Assembly: GCF_003334305.1 (NCBI RefSeq)
Contig: NZ_QOWS01000032.1
Origin: Escherichia coli
Lineage (GTDB): Bacteria; Pseudomonadota; Gammaproteobacteria; Enterobacterales; Enterobacteriaceae
Direction: 5' to 3' (one strand)
Length of the DNA: 35,919 nt
The notes under the pieces were generated by a model, which searched no databases, was not told where the DNA came from, and saw nothing but the letters and a program-made list of their open reading frames with translations. Shown one piece after another: positions 15,875 to 25,998 of this stretch (position 1 is its first letter; every line of letters starts with the position of its first letter). The translations under genes and the position numbers were made by a program.

Positions 15875-16279
15875 TTAGATCAGGAAATCGTCGAGAGATT
15901 TACCTTCTGCCAGCGCCTGAGCAATTGGCTTCGGTGTACGGCCCTGACCGGTCCAGGTTTTAGTTTCACCGTTAACATCGGTGAATTTATATTTCGCCGG
16001 ACGCGGCTGGCGTTTTTTACCAGCGCGTGGTGCAGCAGCAGAGCTATTACCTAATAACTCTTCCGGGTTAATTCCGTCAGCCTTCATCAGCTCCAGCCAG
16101 GTGCTAATTTTTTCCTGACGCTCAGCCAGTTCACGCTGCTGCTGTTCTTCTTCTTCACGTCTTTCTTTAGTGACAACCCTGAATTTTTCGAGCATTTCTT
16201 CAAGAACGTCAATGGAGAATTCGCGAGCCATCGCACGGAGAGTGCGAATGTTATTTAAACTTTGTAACATTACGGACAT
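15875..16279 (-). CDS. stpA: H-NS paralog, nucleoid-associated DNA-binding protein StpA, 134 aa
   Basis: Translation [36 protein letters not shown]... with C-terminal DNA-binding motif [16 protein letters not shown]. Recognized as StpA. Confidence 0.95.
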
Positions 16280-16946
16280 AATAAAGAAAACCTTTTAACG
16301 CCAAAACAAAAAAGTATTTCGTCGCGTAGTGTAAGCGATCACTTATTATATTTCCACAAAATTTAATCTATTTACAGTCCTGCGCGAGATTATTTCAGCT
16401 GTTATTTTCTGAAACTCTCAGAATAATTTCAAGATTATATATTAGCCATTTTGATGAGTAATTTAGATTATTGGTGAACAGAACGGCGCTCTCTGCTCGC
16501 TAATTCCGCAAGCCTGACAAAACCGAAGTGAATAAAAATGCAATATAACAGAATAAAAGAAAACACCCCTCACTGGTGCTTTCTGCTGTTAATGTACATT
16601 TTCTGACATAAAAAATACTGTAAATGACACGGTCACGACATACACCGAATTCTCTACGCTTATAGCGTTACCTCACCCCCAAACTTTCATTAGTGAAATT
16701 AAAGGAAATGTCATATCTAATTGATTTAATTGAAAATAAATCATATCGGCATGTAAAAATCCACAATGTACAAAAAACGAGCCGTTACGGAATATTTTAT
16801 CTACAAAAACTGACTAAATAAAAATTTTTCACTAATTGATTAGTCATAGCCAGCGATATACGCTATGCGAAAATGCAGATGGCAATGAGATCCACTGTTT
16901 TCATCTCCATTAACATCCCATTACGCTTTTATTAAGGAGCATTAGC

Positions 16947-17396
16947 ATGTTCTCACCGCAGTCACGCTTGCGTCATGCAGTTGCAGATACGTTCGCGATG
17001 GTTGTTTACTGTTCTGTCGTGAACATGTGTATTGAAGTTTTCCTCTCCGGAATGAGCTTCGAACAGTCTTTTTATTCCAGATTGGTAGCGATTCCGGTGA
17101 ACATCTTAATTGCATGGCCATACGGTATGTACCGTGATCTGTTTATGCGCGCGGCACGCAAAGTTAGCCCGTCGGGCTGGATAAAAAATCTGGCTGATAT
17201 CCTGGCTTATGTGACGTTCCAGTCACCGGTGTATGTGGCGATCTTGTTAGTGGTGGGCGCAGACTGGCATCAGATTATGGCGGCGGTCAGTTCAAACATC
17301 GTTGTTTCGATGTTGATGGGGGCGGTTTATGGCTACTTCCTCGATTATTGCCGCCGACTGTTTAAAGTCAGCCGTTACCAGCAGGTAAAAGCCTGA
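16947..17396 (+). CDS. alaE: L-alanine exporter, 149 aa
   Basis: Small hydrophobic membrane protein. ATG 16947 preceded by AAGGAG at about 16934..16939. Translation recognized as AlaE/YgaW. Confidence 0.85.
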
Positions 17397-25916: not shown

Positions 25917-25998
25917 GGGCGGATAAGGCGTTTTTGCCTCATCCGCCGCTCTGTACACAATGCCTGATGCGACGCTGACGCGTCTTATCATGCCTACA
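25917..25998. repeat. REP/BIME element downstream of proX (two REP units)
   Basis: gggcggataaggcgtttttgcctcatccgcc and tgcctgatgcgacgctgacgcgtcttatcatgcctaca, imperfect palindromes of REP type. Confidence 0.55.

Follow-up and report, generated by a model that had tools for sequence, protein, structure and literature searches.

The AT-rich interval between stpA and alaE in Escherichia coli: a probable shared control region with conserved ends and a rapidly changing center

What occupies the long interval from which the stpA and alaE genes of Escherichia coli are read outward in opposite directions? The DNA analyzed here (the window) is a 35,919-nt stretch of contig NZ_QOWS01000032.1 (assembly GCF_003334305.1), in which stpA lies on the minus strand at positions 15875-16279 and alaE on the plus strand at 16947-17396. 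The gap between the two divergent genes, at 16280-16946, measures 667 bp. The original prediction, made from the letters alone, described this gap as AT-rich, as lacking any open reading frame of at least 60 aa and as the longest non-coding stretch in the core part of the window. All of this proved accurate. The GC content is 33.7%, against 51.8% in the core part of the window, and just 4% of 667-bp segments are equally AT-rich. In the core part, which runs from glaH onward, the intergenic stretches that come next in length measure 354 bp and 335 bp; comparable or greater lengths, of 559 and 751 bp, occur in two gaps of the accessory 5' part. The longest open reading frame within the gap encodes 42 aa. 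RefSeq annotates no feature in the gap, either in K-12 MG1655 or in strain H15, whose sequence is identical to that of the window across the gap.

The abundance of A and T tracts had been read as typical of curved DNA bound by H-NS and StpA. The excess of tracts is genuine: the gap contains 23 homopolymer runs of A or T of at least 4 nt, a number that none of 1000 mononucleotide shuffles attained (10.8 ± 3.0). Curvature fared less well: at lags close to 10 and 20 the autocorrelation of AA/TT is 0.05-0.09, a weak helical phasing, and curved DNA is not demonstrable for the gap from sequence alone.

Of 5426 complete E. coli genomes, 5420 have the region, each in a single copy. Compared to K-12 MG1655, the gap is 97% identical and differs by 20 substitutions and one 1-bp indel, with K-12 having one extra A in the A-run at 16307/16308. 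Nearly all of these differences fall in the unconstrained center, leaving the promoter hexamers and the conserved alaE block described below unaffected. Differences in the flanking genes amount to 5 in 405 bp for stpA and 1 in 450 bp for alaE. The K-12 differences are clustered, with nine in 37 bp (16601-16637) and four in 15 bp (16697-16711), a distribution that suggests a putative mosaic or recombined patch within the center.

Altogether, the data presented below make it highly probable that the gap is the shared divergent control region of stpA, which encodes a paralogue of H-NS, and alaE, which encodes the L-alanine exporter. It is an ordinary regulatory region, already known and characterized.

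In K-12, SMRT-Cappable-seq (PMC6131387, supplement) lists a single full-length transcript for either gene: b2669 (stpA), from 2798537 to 2798047 on the reverse strand, and b2670 (alaE), from 2799086 to 2799651 on the forward strand. Converted through the K-12/window alignment, these coordinates correspond to starts at about 16320 for stpA and at 16869/16870 for alaE. The 3' end of the stpA transcript is 1 nt off the Term-seq position, which suggests that starts are numbered from zero and hence that the alaE start is 16870. A core sigma-70 promoter precedes each start. On the minus strand, the stpA promoter (16328..16356) has the -35 hexamer TGGAAA (16356..16351) and the -10 hexamer TACACT (16333..16328), the latter sitting 8 nt upstream of the mapped start. 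On the plus strand, the alaE promoter (16836..16864) has TTGATT as the -35 (16836-16841) and TACGCT as the -10 (16859-16864), with the mapped start 5-6 nt further downstream. Both promoters have a 17-bp spacer, lie 5-8 nt upstream of a mapped start and are conserved in 58 species. The stpA hexamers are conserved columns of a 58-species alignment (AGTGTA and TTTCCA on the plus strand), and the TTG of the alaE -35 and the TA..CT of its -10 are invariant across genera. The claim that the gap holds both promoters is thus supported by mapped starts as well as by conserved elements. From the positions of the two starts, about 550 bp lie between them and outside both mRNAs. Promoters predicted by pattern for this spacer by Shimada et al. 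(TTTACA-17-TTTAAT and GTGATA-17-TCTAAT; PMC3946193) are off the mapped starts and were not adopted.

The 5' untranslated leader of stpA (16280..16320, minus strand) is 41 nt long (42 nt in K-12) and includes a motif, AAAACCTTTTAACG, kept across genera. That of alaE (16869..16946, plus strand) is 78 nt long, with the Shine-Dalgarno (SD) sequence AAGGAG at 16934-16939, and shows low conservation (0.37) except for the SD and a CACT motif around 16893. When the two leaders were considered as structured RNA elements, their folds were unremarkable (z = -1.1 for stpA and z = -1.7 for alaE), and the sequence of the alaE leader is not conserved. The CACT/CGCT motif (16890-16897), some 25 nt from the 5' end of that leader, is kept across genera and may act as a protein site downstream of the start or pair with a small RNA. 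Citrobacter amalonaticus, alone among the species compared, has a GC-rich insertion of about 130 bp in the alaE leader, just upstream of the SD, which may be a small mobile repeat. Inside the stpA coding sequence, Term-seq (PMC7815308, supplement) lists internal RNA 3' ends at K-12 positions 2798243 and 2798385 (about 16027 and 16169 in the window, minus strand), hinting at stable 5' fragments of the stpA mRNA.

The alaE locus was taken from 80 species of Enterobacteriaceae, 58 of which have stpA as the divergent neighbor and 22 of which do not. In the former group the gap measures 475-789 bp with a GC content of 31-43%, and the alignment shows conservation at both ends and none in the middle. 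On the stpA side, conservation is limited to the core promoter and the leader. On the alaE side, a block at 16790..16835 (plus strand; GAATATTTTATCTACAAAAAC ... AAATAAAAATTTTT), spanning about -34 to -80 from the start, follows the pattern ATTTTATC.ACAAAAA ... AAATAAAAATTT and has a mean identity of 0.75 to 53 non-Escherichia species, similar to that of adjacent coding DNA. It is kept in 80 of 80 species. Within it lie the motifs ATTTTATCTAC (16794-16804, plus strand) and AAATAAAAAT (16817-16826, plus strand), the second of which is exact in 20 of the 22 species in which stpA is not the neighbor and is present as one-base variants in the other two. Since the block is found also in these 22 species, it belongs to alaE. 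We propose that it acts as an Lrp activator site, as an UP element, or as both. Further upstream, a distal island (16715..16789, plus strand) has a mean identity of 0.51 to non-Escherichia species and contains near-invariant short motifs: ATTGATTTAA at about 16720, a ACAACGAAAAT-like element at about 16750 and CAAAAAAC at about 16770. It probably comprises distal activator sites, which we tentatively assign to Lrp.

Ihara et al. are said to have described, in 2017, an Lrp footprint upstream of alaE, from -161 to -83, and reportedly found that induction was supported by 240 nt of upstream DNA and not by 180 nt. If these figures are counted from the ATG, as we presume, the footprint corresponds to 16786-16864 and coincides with the conserved block. 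The 240- and 180-nt limits would then fall at 16707 and 16767 and, together with the footprint, presumably match both conserved islands. A repeat search of the gap yielded merely short two-copy matches. The sole noteworthy one, CTAATTGATT, occurs at 16717-16726 and 16832-16841, 115 bp apart, with one copy in each island upstream of alaE; the second copy includes the alaE -35 hexamer, and the TTGAT core of both copies is kept across genera.

Regulatory sites had also been predicted for the gap, and published Lrp ChIP, reporter assays, AFM bridging and H-NS genomic SELEX support their presence; all binding and transcript data for the gap come from K-12. Ziegler and Freddolino (2023; PMC10127797) describe the "stpA-alaE region" as an example of a double Lrp ChIP-seq peak. 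Removal of the upstream peak, internal to ygaP, reduces the Lrp-dependent activation of stpA more than 5-fold (PMC10127797). In the same study, AFM showed the purified stpA-alaE fragment to be bridged by Lrp, with bridging abolished by leucine, and data on this fragment also include a PalaE-lacZ reporter and qRT-PCR. In minimal medium alaE is slightly repressed by Lrp, and it is strongly activated with leucine, isoleucine and valine (PMC10127797); L-alanine or L-leucine induces alaE through Lrp (PMC6801825). For its part, stpA is Lrp-dependent in minimal medium and silenced by H-NS (PMC4668568). Genomic SELEX, performed in vitro with K-12 DNA, assigns to the spacer an H-NS site and sites for the RpoD holoenzyme (Shimada et al. 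2014; PMC3946193).

Matching to consensus sequences did not localize these sites. The 15-bp Lrp consensus YAGHAWATTWTDCTR has 63 matches in the window, compared to 56 ± 8.5 expected, and is not enriched; three matches fall in the gap and two of these in the conserved block. Taken singly, the Lrp-like matches at 16802-16816 and 16851-16865 do not exceed chance. Lrp motifs are known as poor predictors of binding. Similarly, the high-affinity H-NS motif TCGATAAATT has one match in the gap, with two mismatches, which is no better than chance. With both scans not above shuffles, sequence alone cannot place the sites.

Between the conserved ends lies an AT-rich spacer (16361..16714) without any conserved sequence element, presumed to be a platform for H-NS/StpA and Lrp. 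Aligned to the 53 non-Escherichia species, this center has a mean identity of 0.23 and numerous indels. BLAST found no similarity to the E. coli center beyond E. coli and its closest clade, apart from about 90 bp at the stpA-side edge that are alignable in E. albertii. Identity to other Escherichia lineages is 0.55-0.58, whereas six flanking genes, at their third codon positions, reach 0.77-0.82. When center divergence is expressed as Jukes-Cantor distance relative to third codon positions, the ratio is 1.0-1.5 inside the cryptic-clade/E. whittamii group and 1.6 between E. coli and its closest clade; it is 1.9-2.4 when E. albertii is one member of the pair, and 3.0-4.0 when E. coli (or its closest clade) is compared to the cryptic-clade/E. 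whittamii group. Among E. coli genomes, 36% are merely 90-95% identical in the center, while the flanking genes are essentially never below 95%. Composition is kept: in all 58 species the GC content of the homologous spacer is 0.32-0.50 (median 0.38), against about 0.51 in the surrounding loci.

The sole mildly unusual point of the locus is the very fast, length-preserving turnover of the center on the E. coli branch. It is a general trend that H-NS-bound upstream intergenic regions, those of core genes included, evolve faster than others (PMC4720273), and the turnover seen here is compatible with the known behavior of H-NS-bound regulatory DNA. The divergence could reflect accelerated drift of such DNA or an old exchange of non-coding DNA. 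A replacement or radical remodeling of the center (about 16380-16750) in the E. coli lineage would be in line with these divergence ratios, with the BLAST result and with the steady total length of the gap (661-669 bp), and is improbable; if it took place, it could amount to a lineage-specific rewiring of stpA or alaE control through exchange of non-coding DNA. Alternatively, the center could hide an E. coli-specific transcript, ending for instance at the hairpin at 16558-16584 (see below), that is silenced by H-NS and missed by K-12 maps made under standard conditions. In one urinary isolate, E. coli A1.S1.18 (locus L089, NZ_CP146595.1), an IS1 element (799-1485) lies inside the center, at the equivalent of about 16445, and sets the two promoters about 0.8 kb further apart. 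The possibility that the center is a remnant of a mobile element or phage was considered and rejected, the phage and plasmid matches being host chromosomes mislabeled as plasmids and one host fragment, and the region being single-copy.

The question then arises of whether the center has any role, or whether the gap has a product of its own. The central 350 bp or so might be functionless filler or a decayed remnant, leaving about 80 bp at the stpA end and about 230 bp at the alaE end as the parts that matter. Divergence at or above the rate of third codon positions and the tolerance of IS1 in one natural isolate also fit filler drifting toward an AT-rich mutational equilibrium; a GC content near 0.35 is where unconstrained E. 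coli DNA would drift, and indels are frequent between genera, the spacer ranging from 158 to 473 bp. However, despite the deletion bias of bacteria, the AT-rich spacer between the conserved ends never falls below 158 bp in any of the 58 species, and across Escherichia the total length of the gap stays within 661-669 bp despite about 45% substitution. The spacer is, moreover, occupied by Lrp and H-NS, Lrp bridging affects stpA, and a remnant is opposed by the lack of similarity to phage, plasmid or other genomic DNA. We regard filler as unlikely. Considerably weaker is the case for an unannotated small RNA encoded in the gap in addition to its control elements, the likeliest form of which would be a minus-strand transcript ending upstream of the stpA promoter. 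Contrary to the original prediction, which saw no clear terminator hairpin, there is a terminator-like structure on the minus strand at 16584..16558, made of a 10-bp stem followed by a U-rich tail UUUUAUUCUGUU (-15.5 kcal/mol, z = -2.9), and the AT-rich DNA offers many weak promoter-like sites. The hairpin is kept in the K-12 and O10:H32 alleles (-14.0), but three B2-type alleles have lost it (-7 to -9) and other Escherichia species lack it; the sequence around it diverges faster than third codon positions, and a promoter scan gave no passing site upstream of it on the minus strand. Curated Term-seq 3' ends from K-12 in three growth conditions, together with Rho regions (Adams et al.; PMC7815308), include none between 2798385 and 2799705. 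Lacking conservation and a Term-seq 3' end, the hairpin was rejected as a small-RNA terminator and judged to be a chance, lineage-specific feature. A search of the gap against Rfam 15 returned nothing above noise even at E <= 10. The only starts in the gap on the thresholded SMRT-Cappable-seq list of K-12 are those of stpA and alaE, and the Cappable-seq supplement has no coordinates in the gap within the files searched, which may not include its table of starts. The published start and 3'-end lists are thresholded and sample few growth conditions, which leaves some room for such a transcript; within these lists just the two 5' UTRs are seen, the outcome that the original prediction had named as speaking against independent transcripts. 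Altogether, its suggestion of a small RNA finds no support in Rfam, Term-seq, SMRT-Cappable-seq or conservation, and we consider such an RNA exceedingly improbable.

Very improbable, too, is a translated micro-ORF, the other product for which the original prediction had seen room. The best candidate is a 20-codon upstream ORF (uORF) in the alaE leader (16873..16935, plus strand), which lies wholly inside the mapped leader and is intact in all seven E. coli alleles compared. Its start codon is 3-4 nt from the transcription start, making leaderless-type initiation conceivable, and it ends at TAAGGAG, where the overlap of its stop with the alaE SD could tune alaE translation. It has, however, no SD of its own; of five further Escherichia lineages just two have it intact (that of E. 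whittamii stops after 5 codons), and all other genera lack the ATG. Neither does the peptide contain a run of alanine or leucine that would suggest attenuation. In a ribosome-profiling supplement (Stringer et al.; bioRxiv 10.1101/2021.07.02.450978), nothing is listed at 27985xx-27990xx, the uORF belonging to 27990xx. We conclude that the uORF is probably not functional. Nor do the other 19 of the 20 ORFs of at least 10 codons in the gap have an SD; in most of the five non-E. coli lineages, or in all of them, 18 of these 19 are broken, and none of the 20 is intact in all five. The best kept (16251-16304, minus strand; antisense across the stpA start codon) is intact in four. The suggestion of a micro-ORF has, in short, no backing in SD sequences, conservation or the supplement of Stringer et al.

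The evidence is best accommodated by a shared control region that would operate as follows. A sigma-70 promoter at each end of the gap fires outward, from about 16320 for stpA and from 16869/16870 for alaE. On the alaE side, an array of sites conserved over 150 bp (16715-16864) would allow promoter activation by Lrp carrying L-alanine or L-leucine. At the stpA end, activation by Lrp involves DNA bridging from the spacer to another Lrp site, located within ygaP at a distance of more than 1 kb, and H-NS (and StpA itself) would repress by coating the AT-rich DNA. The central 350 bp or so has no sequence-specific content, the properties kept being AT-richness and sheer presence (at least 158 bp in every species); it may be a platform on which nucleoid proteins land and spread with low specificity, and may insulate the two promoters from each other. 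The mapped starts, the conservation of the promoters, Lrp binding and bridging, the H-NS site and the unconserved center are established parts of this scheme; which of the conserved motifs binds Lrp, and that the center is functionally needed rather than tolerated, we infer.

The locus is the same as the stpA-alaE (ygaW) region studied in K-12 (PMC10127797; PMC3946193), and its promoters and conserved blocks are identical to those of K-12. It resembles the H-NS-bound ("type-A") spacers of csgD-csgB and of the proU upstream region in having a long AT-rich spacer with outward sigma-70 promoters, in the silencing by nucleoid proteins countered by a specific activator, and in evolving faster than unbound intergenic regions. 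Unlike these spacers, the gap is flanked by core genes conserved across Enterobacteriaceae, the product of one of them, a paralogue of H-NS, exerts feedback on the spacer itself, and the activator is the global regulator Lrp, working partly by long-range bridging to the ygaP site. The Lrp-activated exporter genes leuE/yeaS and ygaZH are similar to alaE in relying on amino-acid-loaded Lrp and on sites upstream of a weak sigma-70 promoter. In contrast to these, the Lrp sites of alaE are not placeable by consensus matching, and its upstream block is unusually invariant over 80 species.

The stpA-alaE locus is an established model for DNA bridging by Lrp and for cross-regulation between H-NS and StpA. 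Added here is a base-level map of constraint across Enterobacteriaceae, which delimits two core promoters, an alaE activator array of about 150 bp kept in all 80 species and a center of about 350 bp that is free to evolve and yet remains AT-rich, in line with the trend toward rapid diversification of H-NS-bound upstream regions. The gap drops out as a likely site of an undiscovered small RNA or small protein gene; beyond good annotation, the significance of the gap is slight.

Some features were noted elsewhere in the window. Rfam at gathering thresholds returned, over the whole window, MicA, naRNA4 and tRNAs alone, all outside the gap. The MicA small RNA, at 32592-32663 on the plus strand (83.9 bits), is situated in the interval separating luxS from gshA and is unannotated in the RefSeq record of the identical strain. 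The naRNA4 match (CssrE, a nucleoid-associated RNA/REP-type element), at 25917-25994 on the plus strand just downstream of proX, scores 65.2 bits against a gathering score of 59.5. At the other end, positions 1-6435 consist of accessory or decayed DNA: the end of an IS3 transposase, a truncated ypjA/ehaD autotransporter gene, a recombinase fragment, a frameshifted ypjCB, a tRNA-Ile gene and a frameshifted gene of the alpha-amylase family.
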